Sequence record: OR352948.1 | Strand: one strand, 5' to 3' | Length of the DNA stretch: 64,000 nt | From: Escherichia phage AV118 | Part shown: positions 11,375 to 32,003 of the stretch, piece by piece | How the letters are laid out: each line of letters opens with the position of its first letter | Numbering within the stretch: position 1 is the first letter of the stretch | Notes under the pieces: model-generated | Databases searched by the model: none | What the model saw: the letters and a program-made list of their open reading frames with translations, nothing else | What the model was told of the DNA's origin: nothing | Program-made: the position numbers and the translations under genes

Positions 11375-11845
11375 TTAATCATGTTTCCACACCCCATCGG
11401 TATTTGACCAAAGTCGCTGATTATCTGATCCTCGCCACAGCTTTTTAGTCGGAAGATTTTTCTCATACTTCCCATCAATAATAACATCAACATATTTAAG
11501 CATTTCTAGTTGTTTAATATCTTCAAAATTATATCCTGTCCACAACCAAATGCTTTTATTGGGATAAAGATTTTTAATAGTTTGAACCACAGAGTGAATC
11601 ACATCTCTGTTATCAGGATAGAGAGGGTCACCTCCGGTTATAGTCAATCCTTCTATATAATCATTATTCAAACATTCAATTAATTGTTCTAGTGTTTCAC
11701 CAGTGAATGGAATACCATTTCTAGCATTCCATGTTGATTTATTATAACACCCTTCGCATTTATGCAAACAACCCGTAACGAAAAGAACGACCCTGCAACC
11801 AGGGCCATTCACAAAATCGCAAGGATAAAATCTATCATAATTCAT
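11375..11845 (-). CDS. nrdG: Anaerobic ribonucleotide reductase activating protein NrdG (radical SAM)
   Basis: 156 aa with CxxxCxxC cluster (CLHKCEGC); same size as T4 NrdG. Confidence 0.9.
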   Translation of the reverse strand: MNYDRFYPCDFVNGPGCRVVLFVTGCLHKCEGCYNKSTWNARNGIPFTGETLEQLIECLNNDYIEGLTITGGDPLYPDNRDVIHSVVQTIKNLYPNKSIWLWTGYNFEDIKQLEMLKYVDVIIDGKYEKNLPTKKLWRGSDNQRLWSNTDGVWKHD

Positions 11846-13659
11846 TGGTGTTTAACCCTATGCATGATTTCTTTATTTTTACCGAGATTAAATCCGCGTT
11901 CGTTCGGATTTCCCAAATAACCGCATGTTCTTCTTATGGTGTTCATCTTTTTAGGATCAGTTTCTCCACAGATAGAACAAACAAATCCGTTTTCAGTAGG
12001 AGTCATTTCATGGGTACTTCCACATGTAAAACATTTATCTACTGGCATATTAACACCAAAATAATCTAAATGTTGTGCAGCATAATCCCACACGGCCTCA
12101 AGTCCTTTTAAGTTATTTTTCATATCAGGAAGTTCAACATAAGAAATGTGACCACCTGTCGCAATGAAATGATATGGCGCTTCACGAGAAATCTTTTCAA
12201 ACGGAGTAATATTTTCTTCTACTGAAACGTGGAAACTGTTAGTGTACCAGCCTTTATCGGTAACATCTTTTACACTTCCATATTTTTCTGTATCGAGTTT
12301 ACAGAAGCGATAACAAAGGTTTTCAGCAGGAGTCGAATATAAACTAAAAGCAAATCCAGTTCTTTCGGTCCACTGCTTAAGATGAGCATTCATTTTAGTT
12401 AAAATTTCTTGCCCAATATCACGACCGACAAGAATATTCAATTCGTGAATACCAATGTATCCTAAAGACACTGAACTTCTACCGTTTTTAAATAACTCAA
12501 TTATGTCGTCATCAGGTTTAAGACGAACCCCGAATGCACCTTCTTGGTAAAGAATAGGAGCTACAGTTGCTTTAACACCCTTTAAAGAACTAATTCTACA
12601 CATCAAGGCTTCAAAACACAGATCCATTCGTTCATTGAATAATTCAACAAATTTCTGTTCATTGAACTGTGTTCCAATATAAGAATCTAATGCGATACGA
12701 GGAAGATTCAGTGTTACAACGCCGAGATTATTACGACCGTCAAGAATTTCATTTCCAGTTGAATCTTTCCATACGCTCAAGAAACTACGGCAACCCATCG
12801 GAGAAACTGGAACTGAAGAACCGGTAATAGCTTTATTATTCTTAACTGAAATAATGTCAGGATACATTCTTTTGCTTGCACATTCTAACGCAAGTTGTTT
12901 AATATCATAGTTTGGATCATCTTTATAAAGATTAACACCTTCTTCAAAAAACATAACAAGCTTAGGGAAAATAGGAGTTATTCCATCACGTCCAAGGCCT
13001 TTAATGCGGTTTTTAAGAATTGCCTTCTGAATCATTCGTTCAGTCCAGTCAGTTCCTGTACCAAATGTAATTGTTACAAAAGGTGTTTGTCCGTTTGAAC
13101 TAAAGAGAGTATTTACTTCATATTCATAAGCTTGGAATGCATCGTATACATCTTTTTCTGTTTTAGATTGAGCATAATTCAACGCATCAGCGATTTGCCA
13201 TTTTTCTGCATCCTCAATATGTTTTGCATAGGTGCGTTTAACATAAGGAGAAAGTACTTTATCTACATTAGCAAAAGTCGTTCCGCCGTATTGATGGGAA
13301 GCAACCTGTGCAGTAATTTGTGCCATAATTGCAGTAGCAACACCGATTGATTTAGGAGTTTCAATCTGTGCATTACCAAGCTTAAATCCATTCTCAAGCA
13401 TTCCTTTTAAATCTACTAAACAGCAATTAGTAAAAGGCAATGATATACTGTAATCTAAATCGTGAAAATGAATTAATCCGACATTATGAGCATTTACAAT
13501 ATGGCTCGGAAGAATACTACAAGCGATATGTTTAGAAACAATACCGGCCATTAAATCTCTTTTTGTTGGAAAGACACGAGAATCTTTGTTGGCATTTTCG
13601 GTATTTAATTCTTTATCTTTATTTGAAATAAAATTTAAAACATCTTTCTCTAAAGACAT
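11842..13659 (-). CDS. nrdD: Anaerobic ribonucleoside-triphosphate reductase NrdD
   Basis: 605 aa, C-terminal zinc ribbon (CFTCGS...CSICG) and glycyl-radical tail (RTCGYLG); uninterrupted, no intron. Confidence 0.95.
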   Translation of the reverse strand: MSLEKDVLNFISNKDKELNTENANKDSRVFPTKRDLMAGIVSKHIACSILPSHIVNAHNVGLIHFHDLDYSISLPFTNCCLVDLKGMLENGFKLGNAQIETPKSIGVATAIMAQITAQVASHQYGGTTFANVDKVLSPYVKRTYAKHIEDAEKWQIADALNYAQSKTEKDVYDAFQAYEYEVNTLFSSNGQTPFVTITFGTGTDWTERMIQKAILKNRIKGLGRDGITPIFPKLVMFFEEGVNLYKDDPNYDIKQLALECASKRMYPDIISVKNNKAITGSSVPVSPMGCRSFLSVWKDSTGNEILDGRNNLGVVTLNLPRIALDSYIGTQFNEQKFVELFNERMDLCFEALMCRISSLKGVKATVAPILYQEGAFGVRLKPDDDIIELFKNGRSSVSLGYIGIHELNILVGRDIGQEILTKMNAHLKQWTERTGFAFSLYSTPAENLCYRFCKLDTEKYGSVKDVTDKGWYTNSFHVSVEENITPFEKISREAPYHFIATGGHISYVELPDMKNNLKGLEAVWDYAAQHLDYFGVNMPVDKCFTCGSTHEMTPTENGFVCSICGETDPKKMNTIRRTCGYLGNPNERGFNLGKNKEIMHRVKHQ

Positions 13660-14471
13660 AATTCTAATTTATCCTTTTGAAATTCTTCGTCTAAATATGG
13701 GTTCCAACCCATTTTAAACCTTTTGATGAAATTATCAATTCTAAATTTCGGTAAATTTAACTCCGCAAAAATAGATGATTTACTTTTAAAATCTGGACCT
13801 AAATAATCATATAAAATTTCTGCGTATTTTAACCATAATATATAAGTACCAGATTTAATTGCTCTAGGAGTTTTCCAAGGTTTTACGCCGTACATCGGAT
13901 TTCCACTTCCTTTATGCCTGATAGAAGATGAAATTCCAATTTTAATTTTAGCTTCCTTTGTGTGCGAAAATCCATGATGTGGATTTTCTTTCCAGTATTT
14001 TTTAGAAGCTTCTGATATTTTCTTTCTGGCTAAATTAGTATGATGCTTTCCATAAAATCCATGATTTTTACCTTTATTACGATTTCTTTTAATCATGGTT
14101 ATTGATTGCTTTTCTCTAGTTTCTTTAGAAGGAGAAACACCGTACGTTGTAAATTGACCATTAGCATATGCTAAATTAAAATACTCTTTATTCCATATAT
14201 CTTTTTCTATATTCTTTTGAAATTCAGCTTCAATGCTAGTTATTTGTTCATCTCCGACTAATTGAAAATATAATATTTCAACTTTCGGTGTTTCTTTCAA
14301 CAGAGCTTTTTGAAATTCGGAAGATGACGAAGACGAATAATAAAATTTACCATTTTTATCAATAATATTCGTTCCGTCAAAAGTGCAATTGGTTTTACTT
14401 CCAATATAATAATATGGCGGGGTTTTAGCATTAATTCTACTAATAAATGATAGTTTATATACTACATTCAT
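13650..14471 (-). mobile_element. Free-standing homing-endonuclease-like gene (Seg-like), paralog of 1946-2836
   Basis: N-terminus VYKLSFI...YYYIGSK, shared EYFNLAYAN segment, C-terminal repeats GKHHTNLARKKIS and HGFSHTKEAKIKIG; ATG abuts the gene 49 stop (TGAATG); inserted between 49 and nrdD. Confidence 0.45.
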
Positions 14472-28109: not shown

Positions 28110-28325
28110 TTATTGATAAAATGGAGTTAAAGCCCAGGATTCTTTAGATACTATATTGGCGAAATGCCTCATCTCTTCGATTTGGCGACGACGCTGGTCA
28201 GCATAGTCTTCTTCGCCTTCTTCCTTACAGTCTTCAAGGTCTTCTTCAAGATACTTTAAGTATTCACTACAAATTTTGTTGACCTTTTCTTGGAAGTCCA
28301 ATAACCCAGTAATAGTAGAAGCCAT
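28110..28325 (-). CDS. Hypothetical acidic protein (vs.3 position)
   Basis: 71 aa ORF. Confidence 0.4.
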   Translation of the reverse strand: MASTITGLLDFQEKVNKICSEYLKYLEEDLEDCKEEGEEDYADQRRRQIEEMRHFANIVSKESWALTPFYQ

Positions 28326-28591
28326 TAGTATTTTTCCTCAGGTCGAAATACCGCACGACATGCCCACATACTGGCTTCTTTTAGATGTTGCTTAGCGTAC
28401 TTAAGAGCCTGCACTGCATCCATATCTTCTTTGGTTTGTTGCTCTGTTTCATTTTCTTTCAAGATATATGCTTCTTCAATCAGAGCATCAAACAACAATC
28501 CAAGACGGACTTCAGCATCTTTAATAGCGTTCACTTTACCAATTTTATCATCGGTATGCGGCTTGTAACCTTTAATATCTTCAATCGACAT
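28325..28591 (-). CDS. Hypothetical helical protein at the T4 vs.4 (Acb2) position
   Basis: 88 aa from the internal MSIEDIK start; second ORF after regB, where T4 carries vs.4; no sequence verification possible. Confidence 0.35.
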   Translation of the reverse strand: MSIEDIKGYKPHTDDKIGKVNAIKDAEVRLGLLFDALIEEAYILKENETEQQTKEDMDAVQALKYAKQHLKEASMWACRAVFRPEEKY

Positions 28592-28805
28592 AAGGAATTT
28601 CCTCATCTGTGGCAAGGTCATATTCGACCAATTGGATAGGCTCATTAATACCATATCCACGTACAGTGATATCAGTTGTCGGATAGTTTCCAGTAATATC
28701 ACCCGTTCTAAATGCTTCAATGAATGATTGCTCGCCTGAGCAACTAAACCAGGCGGCAAAACATTTTAAAACATCTTCAGACCCTTCTATAATCAATTTA
28801 GCCAT
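28581..28805 (-). CDS. Hypothetical protein (vs.5 position)
   Basis: 74 aa ORF. Confidence 0.4.
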   Translation of the reverse strand: MAKLIIEGSEDVLKCFAAWFSCSGEQSFIEAFRTGDITGNYPTTDITVRGYGINEPIQLVEYDLATDEEIPYVD

Positions 28806-29167
28806 TATAGACTCTCAGTAAAGGTACGAGCGATAACGTCGCGTTGCTGTTCCGGAGTCAGAGAGTTAAAGCGAACTGCATATCCGGATACACGGATGGT
28901 CAGCTGCGGATATTTTTCTGGATGCTTAACTGCATCTTCCAAAGTTTCACGACGCAGAACGTTAACGTTCAGATGTTGACCACCTTCAATTTTAACTTTA
29001 GGTTGATGTTCAATTTCAATTTCACGGGCATTCAAACCGTAGAAAATTTCCGGGTCTACAATAGCGTCTTCTTTAAAAGTCTTAGAGACAATAATCCGGG
29101 CTTGAGTACCGTCTTCAAAATAAATAGTGCCTTTATGTGCACCTTCAAGAATTTGATATGCTTTCAT
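28805..29167 (-). CDS. Autonomous glycyl-radical cofactor (GrcA/YfiD-like; T4 Y06I homolog)
   Basis: C-terminal ~60 aa ([60 protein letters not shown]) carries the RVSGY glycyl-radical motif and matches recalled E. coli GrcA. Confidence 0.85.
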
Positions 29168-29173
29168 ATAACC

Positions 29174-29482
29174 TCAGTTAGAAAATAAATTTATCCAAGT
29201 TTTTTCTTTAATCAAAAATGGGTCGGAATTAAACGCCATTAAACTTTGAGTGATTAATCCCTTAAATGGCCCATCAATAAATTCCATTTTGAAATGCGGA
29301 ATACTAGTCATCAACCGTGCATTAGGAGCAGTACAAAGAACCTGCTGCCCTGCGAACGGTCCTTTAGTCAAACGGTATCGTTTAGGTTTAAAATGGTAAA
29401 TCTCGTAATTTTCTACAAGAGCCATTTTATTGCATACTGGGCTGTTATAACAATATTCAAAAACTTCAATAGTGGTCATCAT
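29174..29482 (-). CDS. Hypothetical protein
   Basis: 102 aa ORF. Confidence 0.4.
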   Translation of the reverse strand: MMTTIEVFEYCYNSPVCNKMALVENYEIYHFKPKRYRLTKGPFAGQQVLCTAPNARLMTSIPHFKMEFIDGPFKGLITQSLMAFNSDPFLIKEKTWINLFSN

Positions 29483-30131: not shown

Positions 30132-30434
30132 TTATTTACCTTTAATTACTTTAGCTGCTTCGATAGCCGCTTGCTGAAGGTCATCCATAGACATACCAAA
30201 TTTAGAAGCAAAGTTATCAATTTTCTTTTCGACAGCATTCAAAGGCTTGGCCTGTTTACCTTCATTAGCGCCAGGAAGAGCGAGAATACGCTCTTTGTCA
30301 ATATAAAGGCTTACAAGTTTCTTACGGTCTTTATCGGACAAATCATGAAATGAATGGGCCTTTTTATTTATAGCGGCTTCTAATTTACCTGCACTCACTC
30401 GCGCTTCAGTAATAAATTCTTGATATGTTTTCAT
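30132..30434 (-). CDS. Internal-protein-like head protein with capsid-targeting N-terminus
   Basis: Starts MKTYQEFITE|A, matching the T4 IP capsid-targeting sequence with an (L/I)xE protease site. Confidence 0.6.
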   Translation of the reverse strand: MKTYQEFITEARVSAGKLEAAINKKAHSFHDLSDKDRKKLVSLYIDKERILALPGANEGKQAKPLNAVEKKIDNFASKFGMSMDDLQQAAIEAAKVIKGK

Positions 30435-30497: not shown

Positions 30498-30758
30498 TTA
30501 AGCTTTACCGCCAGAAATAATTCCGAAGTTGTTAAAATCGTATCCAATATCGTCAACATCTACTTTAGGACTTACTACAACATAAGCAATTTCACTACGT
30601 TTTGCATAGGTGTTGATTTCTTTACCATCGCCACCTAAGAAAGAATACCCATTACGTTTTAATGAGCCAAAGTCTTCGGCATCACCAATGAAAGCTTTAA
30701 CTTTAAATTTAGGACCTTTGGCATCTGCTTCAGCGATAAATTCTTGATACATTTTCAT
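30498..30758 (-). CDS. Internal-protein-like head protein with capsid-targeting N-terminus
   Basis: Starts MKMYQEFIAE|A. Confidence 0.6.
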   Translation of the reverse strand: MKMYQEFIAEADAKGPKFKVKAFIGDAEDFGSLKRNGYSFLGGDGKEINTYAKRSEIAYVVVSPKVDVDDIGYDFNNFGIISGGKA

Positions 30759-31236: not shown

Positions 31237-31518
31237 CTATTTTTCTGAAGCGCCTGAAATATATTTTTCAAGACGTTGTTTCATTAGCGAGCCGTTCTTA
31301 GCGATTTCTTCCGGTTTATCGCACATACGTAACAAGGCTTCAAGCTTAGCGATATCGCTGGTACGTTCAAATTTGCGAGTATCTATCTTACTAGCAAGTT
31401 CAGAAATACGTGCTAATAGACTTTCAGCTTCAACCAAAGCTGCACCTAGCTTAGTTGCAAATGTGTCAGTAGCTTCATTAAGAATAGATTCTGATAAAAA
31501 TTCATTGTATGTTTTCAT
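31237..31518 (-). CDS. Internal-protein-like head protein (ipII/ipIII position)
   Basis: From the internal start [10 protein letters not shown]|S; lies between e and denV as ipII/ipIII do in T4. Confidence 0.55.
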
Positions 31519-32003
31519 ATATACGCTTTCCAAGTTCCTGTTTTAAATGTTGAGATTACGCGTTTCGCGCGATTAGGTGTCTGACGATACCATTTAGATT
31601 GGGCTAGATTTACTGCCGCTTCGTCCCAACGTTTCTGTTGAAGCATACGAAGAGAATTAGTAAAACCGGCGACGCCTGCTACACCCATTTGGAAGACCAT
31701 ATTGACCAATGCACATCGACGAACCGCATCTAAAGAATCATATACCGGTTTAAGTTTAGCATTACCCAAGATTCCGCGAACGGCTTTATCAACGTCTTCA
31801 TTAAATAGCTTTTCAGCCTCATCGAGGGTAATTGTACCGTTGCATTTACGTCCGATCATTCTGTCAAGTTCAGCTTTAGCTACGGCTAAAGACGGGTTCT
31901 TTGTTACTAAATGGCCTATGCCAATCGTCCAAAAGCCTTCAGTGTCTTTGTATAAAGTTAGTCTAAGACCTTCGTCATTACGAAGCATTTCAAATATATT
32001 CAT
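31515..32003 (-). CDS. e: Lysozyme (endolysin)
   Basis: From MNIFEML it is 162 aa with high identity to recalled T4 lysozyme (catalytic region EGLRLxxYKDTEGxxTIGIGH). Confidence 0.9.

Follow-up and report, generated by a model that had tools for sequence, protein, structure and literature searches.

Closest described systems

Two spare parts for pyruvate formate-lyase (PFL) have been validated experimentally, the Escherichia coli protein YfiD and the protein Y06I from phage T4, which are radicalised by the PFL-activating enzyme and restore PFL that has been cleaved by oxygen (Wagner et al., 2001, as described in PMC8683613). In YfiD, also known as GrcA, residues 1-60 are disordered and promote binding to cleaved PFL as well as activation, and residues 61-127 duplicate the fold of PFL residues 693-759 (PMC8683613). 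In cyanophages, the auxiliary metabolic genes psbA and psbD of T4-like phages exchange segments with the host copy (Sullivan et al., 2006, PMC1484495). Here, we analyzed a 64,000-nucleotide (nt) stretch of Escherichia phage AV118 (record OR352948.1; hereafter the window) that contains an ortholog of vs.6, the T4 gene for Y06I, and found that this gene is a mosaic of old phage-lineage codons 1-60 and a patch of about 173 nt of Escherichia grcA. The gene and its function are already known from T4 vs.6/Y06I. We found no paper on the nucleotide-level mosaic of vs.6 and grcA in the searchable literature, older T4 literature being outside this check.

The gene and its radical motif are located as follows:

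28805..29167 (stop included), minus strand: vs.6/Y06I ortholog, a predicted GrcA-like autonomous glycyl-radical cofactor (open reading frame, Pfam, T4 identity, synteny)
28868..28894, minus strand: RVSGYAVRF glycyl-radical motif, residues 92-100 (sequence, alignment to E. coli GrcA and PflB)

The open reading frame (ORF) runs from ATG to TAA and encodes 120 amino acids, of which residues 60-101 match the Pfam family Gly_radical (PF01228, E = 2e-18). The radical glycine is Gly95, aligned with Gly102 of E. coli GrcA and encoded by GGA at 28883-28885. The best NCBIfam model is GrcA TIGR04365 (159.1 bits, residues 18-120 aligned), and the best PDB match is 6OWR, the nuclear magnetic resonance structure of E. 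coli GrcA/YfiD (E = 2e-42). Compared with T4 vs.6 (NP_049730, annotated as GrcA in RefSeq), the ORF has the same length, 92.3% nucleotide identity and 113/120 identical residues (94%), and the gene order denV, vs.8, vs.7, vs.6, vs.5 and on to regB is common to both genomes. An initial annotation, made from the letters alone, had called the product a GrcA/YfiD-like cofactor on account of its C-terminus, including the RVSGYAVRF motif, and the comparisons bear it out. Escherichia phage 55, a Mosigvirus, encodes exactly the same protein (100% identity), which identifies the window as part of an RB69-type phage. Homologs were present in about 1,590 of 50,697 phage records, in T-even genera infecting Escherichia, Klebsiella, Enterobacter, Citrobacter, Aeromonas and Vibrio and also in T5-like Demerecviridae.

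T4 Vs.6 is the closest described relative. It likewise has 120 residues, lies between vs.7 and vs.5 homologs in the denV-regB block and shows the same mosaic. It differs from the window protein by six substitutions in the N-terminal half and by His73 in place of Arg73 (the residue of E. coli), and its tract has 2 synonymous differences from E. coli versus 8 in the window; the neighboring genes are only 70-79% identical, the window phage being a Mosigvirus. E. coli GrcA (P68066; 6OWR) has the same arrangement of an N-terminal region followed by a glycyl-radical domain, and its partners PflA and cleaved PflB are presumably common to the window protein. The latter is 7 residues shorter, and its gene lies in an early-gene cluster of a lytic phage, whereas E. 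coli grcA is next to ung. The C-terminal domain of PflB (residues 696-759) has the same fold and motif, but the window protein is a non-enzyme without the catalytic barrel.

A host-derived tract in the 3' half of vs.6

Residues 61-120 are identical to residues 68-127 of E. coli GrcA (taken from the chromosomal ung-grcA locus) at 60/60 positions, whereas only 19 of residues 1-60 agree in a MAFFT alignment (about 30%). The N-terminal half is alignable, with M..Q.I, AR.IV.K, F.ED and RE..E..P.V in common, and hidden Markov model and PDB alignments reach back to residues 18-21. Both the near-identical C-terminus of about 60 residues and the divergent N-terminal half had been pointed out in the initial annotation, which proposed host-derived acquisition or recombination over part of the gene. 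The nucleotide comparison supports this proposal. Codon by codon, an abrupt switch occurs at codon 61 (GAA GGT GGT), from about 50% identity to E. coli upstream to 95.6% over the last 183 nt, where all 8 differences are synonymous; over the same 183 nt, T4 has 3 differences from E. coli grcA (98.4%). Three parts of the gene can be distinguished:

28988..29167, minus strand: 5' half, codons 1-60, probable phage-lineage version of the GrcA N-terminal region (about 50% nucleotide identity to E. coli, phage-like informative sites)
28815..28987, minus strand: Escherichia-derived tract, gene nt 181-353, codons 61-118, structured glycyl-radical domain (nucleotide identity, tree, megablast)
28805..28814, minus strand: last three codons and stop (GAG AGT CTA TAA), with phage-specific synonymous states (sequence, comparison of copies)

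Within nt 181-353, the window has 5 synonymous differences from E. coli and T4 has 1. The remaining 3 of the 8 window differences are in the last three codons, outside the tract, where all Mosigvirus copies have G/T/A at gene nt 354/357/360. The stop codon of vs.6 and the ATG of the vs.5 homolog overlap (TAATG), and no homology to E. coli is present downstream of that stop codon. On the other side, the 5' half is 72-76% identical to its homologs in Jiaodavirus and Karamvirus and belongs to an old phage lineage of grcA homologs found throughout Straboviridae.

Over the last 60 codons, the number of synonymous substitutions per synonymous site (dS) relative to E. coli is 0.046 for T4, 0.095 for a Salmonella-infecting Tequatrovirus and 0.20 for the window. 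For comparison, the same region of bacterial grcA gives a dS to E. coli of 0.045 in an Escherichia cryptic lineage, 0.36 in Citrobacter amalonaticus, 0.65-0.8 in Klebsiella/Enterobacter and 1.02 in Salmonella. Among 81 bacterial grcA genes, the nearest to the tract is that of E. coli, followed by Escherichia sp. and then Citrobacter. In the neighbor-joining tree of the tract, Tequatrovirus, Mosigvirus, E. coli and Escherichia sp. formed one clade in 287/300 bootstraps, and monophyly of all phages was recovered in 0/300. When the whole window was compared by megablast with 5,426 complete E. coli genomes, only one region matched (28797-28989), and the matches were grcA and, more weakly, pflB. 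The radical domain is about 80% identical in amino acids to the C-terminus of PflB and 79% identical in nucleotides over the last 60 codons; the tract is clearly derived from grcA and not from pflB. The window tract reaches at most 95.6% identity to any E. coli genome. In 638 phage records, identity to the E. coli tract is 95% or higher; after a gap, the next records are at 80-87%.

The mosaic was also evident in a triplet test, in which the window or T4 gene was the child and a homolog from Jiaodavirus, Karamvirus or Pseudotevenvirus was set against E. coli as the alternative parent. Informative sites in codons 1-60 favored the phage parent (for example 63:20), whereas those in codons 61-120 favored E. 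coli by 24:2 for the window and 27:0 for T4 (Fisher p = 4e-10 to 2e-20). The codon-usage comparison of the two halves that the initial annotation had proposed agrees in direction. GC content at third codon positions (GC3) in the window gene rises from 0.23 in the 5' half to 0.37 in the 3' half (0.39 and 0.43 in E. coli grcA), across phage copies it is 0.18-0.23 in the 5' half versus 0.36-0.41 in the tract, and the two halves of the window gene fall at percentiles 91 and 16 of phage codon preference. This contrast is modest, and we regard it as suggestive rather than decisive.

One segment of vs.6 thus nests in the host clade and the other follows the phage phylogeny, which is the pattern by which recombination has been recognized in auxiliary metabolic genes of the psbA type. 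As in cyanophage psbA and psbD, different parts of the gene have different genealogies. Unlike these genes, vs.6 belongs to a virulent enterobacterial phage that has modified cytosine and degrades host DNA, and it carries one sharply bounded tract of about 173 nt that is 97-100% identical to the present-day host gene. The direction of exchange is from host to phage, because the C-terminal part of E. coli grcA is as congruent with other enteric bacteria as its N-terminal part, because E. coli grcA lies in a conserved ung-grcA chromosomal context and because the composition of the tract is host-like.

Timing and probable recurrence of the exchange

The patch is best accounted for by homologous recombination or gene conversion between fragments of host grcA and phage vs.6. 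Its left edge is at the point where similarity between phage and host begins, the 5' side being bounded by the loss of similarity, and its right edge is at the last codons, which also form the translation-initiation region of vs.5. Entry postdates both the separation of Escherichia from Citrobacter and Salmonella and the divergence of the 5' halves of Mosigvirus and Tequatrovirus. Two neighboring genes are relevant to these comparisons:

29174..29482, minus strand: vs.7 homolog, upstream neighbor, whose 3' end of about 160 nt lies in the island of raised window-T4 identity (open reading frame, comparison with T4)
28581..28805, minus strand: vs.5 homolog, downstream neighbor, translationally coupled to vs.6 (open reading frame, comparison with T4)

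We analyzed 15 Tequatrovirus/Mosigvirus and 5 Jiaodavirus sequences, drawn from about 640 and 130 records, respectively. IMG/VR provided 6 intact close relatives only (L097-L102), and a metagenome scan returned mostly bacterial grcA plus one more Mosigvirus-like copy. Between the window and T4, the identity of neighboring genes is 70-79% (dS of 0.8 to >2), and vs.6 stands out as an island of raised identity, with dS values of 0.39 for the 5' half and 0.21 for the 3' half. In 14 copies, 12 fixed differences between Mosigvirus and Tequatrovirus were found at nt 39-170 and 0 at nt 181-351 (Fisher p = 4e-4), which implies that the tract came into the two genera, or did so again, once their 5' halves had diverged. 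Mean pairwise differences between genera were 18.8 in the 5' half and 5.6 in the tract; within genera they were 2.2-5.3 and 5.0-5.4, respectively. Since between- and within-genus differences of the tract are alike, it lacks genus structure. Over nt 181-353, the consensus of the phage copies matches E. coli exactly. Both genera include copies without a single difference from E. coli in this region (L098 in one, OES_C-2 and L100 in the other), and these coexist with copies bearing up to 10 differences.

We favor repeated conversion from E. coli over a single acquisition followed by spread, and the exchange was probably recurrent. In its broadest form, this reading holds that the radical-domain half has been overwritten again and again by conversion from the grcA of the current enterobacterial host, a proposal that we put forward tentatively and rate at just under an even chance. 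A strictly lytic T-even phage that degrades host DNA would in this way keep an auxiliary gene updated to the host allele, and the 5' half would be spared only for being too dissimilar to recombine. The Escherichia tracts in Tequatrovirus/Mosigvirus and the Klebsiella/Raoultella patches in Jiaodavirus would be examples of the same process.

The main alternative is that the tract was acquired from the host once, in one T-even lineage, and that the tract or the whole of vs.6 then spread between Tequatrovirus and Mosigvirus by recombination of phages in co-infected cells. We consider this a serious possibility, although a somewhat improbable one. It would account for the island of raised window-T4 identity formed by vs.6 and the end of vs.7, in which even the N-terminal half has a dS of 0.39, and for derived variants in common across genera, such as nt 285A and 324A in the window, CE1 and Nami. 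Private tract variants of Tequatrovirus/Mosigvirus also lack an explaining bacterial donor: none was significant after correction for 156 candidate bacteria. Moreover, exchange between the two genera has taken place nearby, as the ipII-like ORF at 30132-30434 (minus strand) is 93-96% identical in nucleotides to T4 ipII (dS 0.10) amid neighbors at 70-79%, and it is a separate island of recent Mosigvirus-Tequatrovirus exchange. On the other hand, a single acquisition needs a crossover between phages within about 10 nt, from the last genus-specific site (nt 170) to the start of the tract (nt 181), that carried no derived mutation. It also has to explain why the tract consensus is still exactly that of E. 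coli, with identical copies persisting in both genera, and why Jiaodavirus bears separate patches that resemble other hosts.

Klebsiella phages and other lineages

Copies of vs.6 in Jiaodavirus have the Klebsiella-type residues Leu84/Glu88, and the first 165 nt of their tract are 92.7-94.5% identical to Klebsiella/Raoultella-like grcA versus about 85% to that of E. coli. Within this genus the 5' half is 97.8-100% identical and the tract 92.7-98.2%. The allele of one metagenome contig (L184) departs from the genus consensus at 10 sites, 8 of which match a Raoultella grcA (binomial p = 3e-7, 156 donors tested). The same allele recurs in the cultured Klebsiella phage ATCCa (99.5% identity), which is 98.9% identical to phage pKp20 in the 5' half and 100% in the last 18 nt. 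This makes a further host-like patch, separate from the first, whose edges are the same.

Several other homologs were observed in the course of these searches. In the T5-like phages IrisVonRoten and EH4 (L090 and L094, 301-669), a 122-residue homolog adjoins a tRNA-Met gene. Its N-terminus also reads MKAYQ, the rest of the N-terminal half differs, and its radical domain is about 72% identical in nucleotides to E. coli grcA and so has no host patch. IMG/VR phage contigs of about 150 kb, several of them human-associated (L115-L120, L126), encode homologs of 130-137 residues whose radical domains have Pasteurellaceae-type residues (N..D..T). Six of them (L115-L118, L120 and L126) are 79-84% identical in nucleotides to Pasteurellaceae-type grcA (Haemophilus, Gallibacterium or Aggregatibacter), and the best match of L119 is Pantoea at 80%. 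In the tree, L116, L118 and L135 cluster with Pasteurellaceae in 136/300 bootstraps, and the Pasteurellaceae-like copies may represent another host-associated lineage.

Three IMG/VR copies are interrupted, one Jiaodavirus-like copy (L123) by a frameshift after residue ~42 and two others (L135 and L137) by an in-frame stop in the N-terminal half; these defects may reflect pseudogenes, sequencing errors or recoding. Among bacterial records, a genome labelled Vagococcus sp. WN89Y and a 275-kb 'Klebsiella sp. WOUb02 plasmid' (L032 and L023) bear an enterobacterial-type grcA, which could be due to contamination, mislabelling or a plasmid-borne copy.

Proposed function

By analogy with the characterized T4 ortholog and YfiD, the window protein would be a 14-kDa autonomous glycyl-radical cofactor for PFL. 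The role of T4 Y06I as a spare part for oxygen-damaged PFL, which the initial annotation had mentioned, agrees with Wagner et al. (2001) as described in PMC8683613. The window gene encodes a stand-alone small protein with its own Shine-Dalgarno sequence and stop codon and no catalytic barrel fused to it:

29172..29175, minus strand: Shine-Dalgarno-like GAGG, 4 nt upstream of the ATG, overlapping the stop of the vs.7 homolog (read from sequence)

The record of phage 55 annotates a ribosome-binding site at the equivalent place. A scan for promoters and terminators around vs.6 was uninformative, and for promoters it performed no better than on shuffled sequence. An identity as PFL itself was considered and rejected, as only profile positions 679-744 of 744 are matched and the ten-stranded barrel of about 760 residues with the catalytic Cys418/Cys419 is absent. 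The labels 'pyruvate formate-lyase' and 'acetyltransferase', given to vs.6 in many phage records, are misnomers for a protein of 120 residues.

In the infected cell, the host activase PflA would install the radical on Gly95 of the C-terminal domain, which is identical to residues 68-127 of E. coli GrcA and is predicted to consist of a beta-strand, the Gly loop and a helix. This domain would replace the piece of PflB that is lost upon oxygen cleavage at Gly734, and the divergent N-terminal half may be the phage version of the region recognizing cleaved PFL. Restored PFL activity in microaerobic infected cells could keep up the production of acetyl-CoA, ATP and formate. Formate-type class III ribonucleotide reductases use the last of these as their overall reductant (Mulliez, 1995; Wei, 2014; as described in PMC11226230), and the phage NrdD is of this class. 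This offers a reason for vs.6 to travel together with nrdD and nrdG, both of which are present in the window:

11842..13659, minus strand: nrdD, class III anaerobic glycyl-radical ribonucleotide reductase (Pfam NRDD 4e-170 and Gly_radical)
11375..11845, minus strand: nrdG, radical-SAM activase of NrdD (Pfam Fer4_12 and Radical_SAM)

The initial annotation had linked the cofactor with nrdD/nrdG as an adaptation for anaerobic infection. The two genes are indeed there, but they do not adjoin vs.6, and the link is plausible but inferred. In the distant T4-like Aeromonas phage phiAS5 (L093, 301-678), the vs.6 homolog is flanked immediately by nrdG and nrdC/nrdH, a positional argument for a functional connection with anaerobic ribonucleotide reduction that the window does not offer. 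In the window, the start of nrdD abuts and overlaps a 273-residue ORF at 13650-14471 (minus strand), whose NUMOD3 motif is characteristic of homing endonucleases.

It is also conceivable that the protein serves as a spare part or regulator for the phage NrdD instead of host PFL. A comparative-genomics paper proposed a role in nucleotide metabolism on the basis of the Gly_radical match (PMC1524935), and the phiAS5 homolog adjoins nrdG. However, the radical domain is identical to that of GrcA and 80% identical to the C-terminus of PflB rather than NrdD-like, and T4 Y06I complements cleaved PFL; we regard a role with NrdD as very unlikely.

Other explanations of the shared tract

Sequence identity alone has no direction, and Escherichia might in principle have taken the 3' half of grcA from a T-even phage. 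Against this, dS values from E. coli to other enteric bacteria (Citrobacter, Salmonella and Klebsiella) are congruent for the C- and N-terminal parts (0.36/0.54 for Citrobacter, 1.02/0.84 for Salmonella), the ung-grcA context is conserved, the GC3 of the tract (0.36-0.41) is host-like, and related phages outside Tequatrovirus/Mosigvirus bear non-Escherichia tracts. A transfer in this reverse direction is highly improbable.

A further possibility is that no DNA was transferred and that the C-terminal identity reflects only strong purifying selection on a domain that has to fit PflB and PflA of the host, i.e., ordinary conservation within the family. The last 60 residues are in fact highly conserved in bacterial and phage homologs, and 13/81 bacterial GrcA proteins are identical over them. 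However, the identity of the tract extends to synonymous sites, with a dS of 0.05-0.20 to E. coli where other phages are saturated, and is thus more than ordinary family-level similarity. Bacterial orthologs with the identical 60-residue C-terminus still have 13-21 synonymous differences from E. coli, and the tract is specifically closest to Escherichia. The N- and C-terminal parts of bacterial grcA have similar dS, which implies that the C-terminal part is under no special nucleotide constraint. Conservation without transfer is therefore hardly credible.

Synonymous identity could also be convergent, through translational selection for optimal codons or an RNA-level constraint, given that grcA is highly expressed with biased codons and that the phage relies on host tRNAs. 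This explanation is scarcely tenable: non-optimal codons (AAG, CAT, GTA, TAT, TTT and CGC) are also common to the phage tract and E. coli, the 5' half uses phage-typical codons, and the C-terminal part of bacterial grcA evolves at synonymous sites as fast as the N-terminal part. Finally, although the phage was presumably propagated on E. coli, the chance of a chimeric assembly or contamination by host reads is negligible, as both are excluded by the occurrence of the same mosaic in the reference genome of T4 and in over 630 phages sequenced independently (the tract itself in 638) and by the 8 substitutions of the window's own tract, which occur in no E. coli genome.

Taken together, the best explanation is a known spare-part gene with a host-derived 3' tract that was exchanged probably more than once, and we hold this with high confidence. 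Several points weigh against it. Since host DNA is degraded early by T-even phages, recombination with the chromosome must be a rare event. With a length of only about 173 nt, the tract is a weak basis for dating and counting events, and only the 15 and 5 sequences mentioned above were compared for this purpose. Substitutions since acquisition (16 GC>AT versus 13 AT>GC) are not clearly AT-biased as amelioration would predict, and the codon-usage contrast gives weak support. Krischvirus and T5-like coliphages infect E. coli yet have no patch (their dS to E. coli is saturated). In the 3' half, no phage exceeds 95% identity to Salmonella grcA (best 84%) or to the grcA of a Klebsiella metagenome-assembled genome (best 87%, full length). 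The absence of a patch in Krischvirus and T5-like phages and of a near-identical Salmonella pair implies that the process is lineage-limited; it may be restricted to copies that are still similar enough to the host gene for recombination. With regard to function, the TIGR04365 score is below the equivalog cutoff of 170 bits (E. coli GrcA scores 233.9) because the N-terminal half is divergent, the assignment is by analogy, and the link to nrdD/nrdG, about 15 kb from vs.6, is positional only and weak in the window.

Other reading frames near vs.6

A 144-residue ORF with a TTG start at 28325-28759 (minus strand) overlaps the vs.5 homolog by about 180 nt, and the true vs.4-like gene probably starts at an internal ATG of this ORF. 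On the other side of vs.6, the ipII-like ORF and the ORFs at 30498-30758 and 31237-31533 (all on the minus strand) start with MK(T/M)Y(Q/N)EF, like the capsid-targeting N-termini of internal proteins.

Implications

The gene itself is ordinary, as T4 Y06I was characterized in 2001 and RefSeq annotates it as GrcA, but the evolutionary signal is less so. The tract is the sole still-recognizable E. coli DNA in the window and apparently in this part of the T-even genome, and it shows that short stretches of homologous DNA are exchanged between virulent T-even phages and the chromosome of the host over recent times. The mosaic splits the spare-part protein into a structured half that is identical to that of the host and an N-terminal recognition half that is free to diverge or is phage-adapted. 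If the exchange is recurrent, vs.6 would be a compact natural system of about 173 nt, whose partners are known, for measuring the rate of gene conversion from host to lytic phage, and it could be used to gauge whether the exact host allele of PFL/GrcA matters for infection in the low-oxygen gut.

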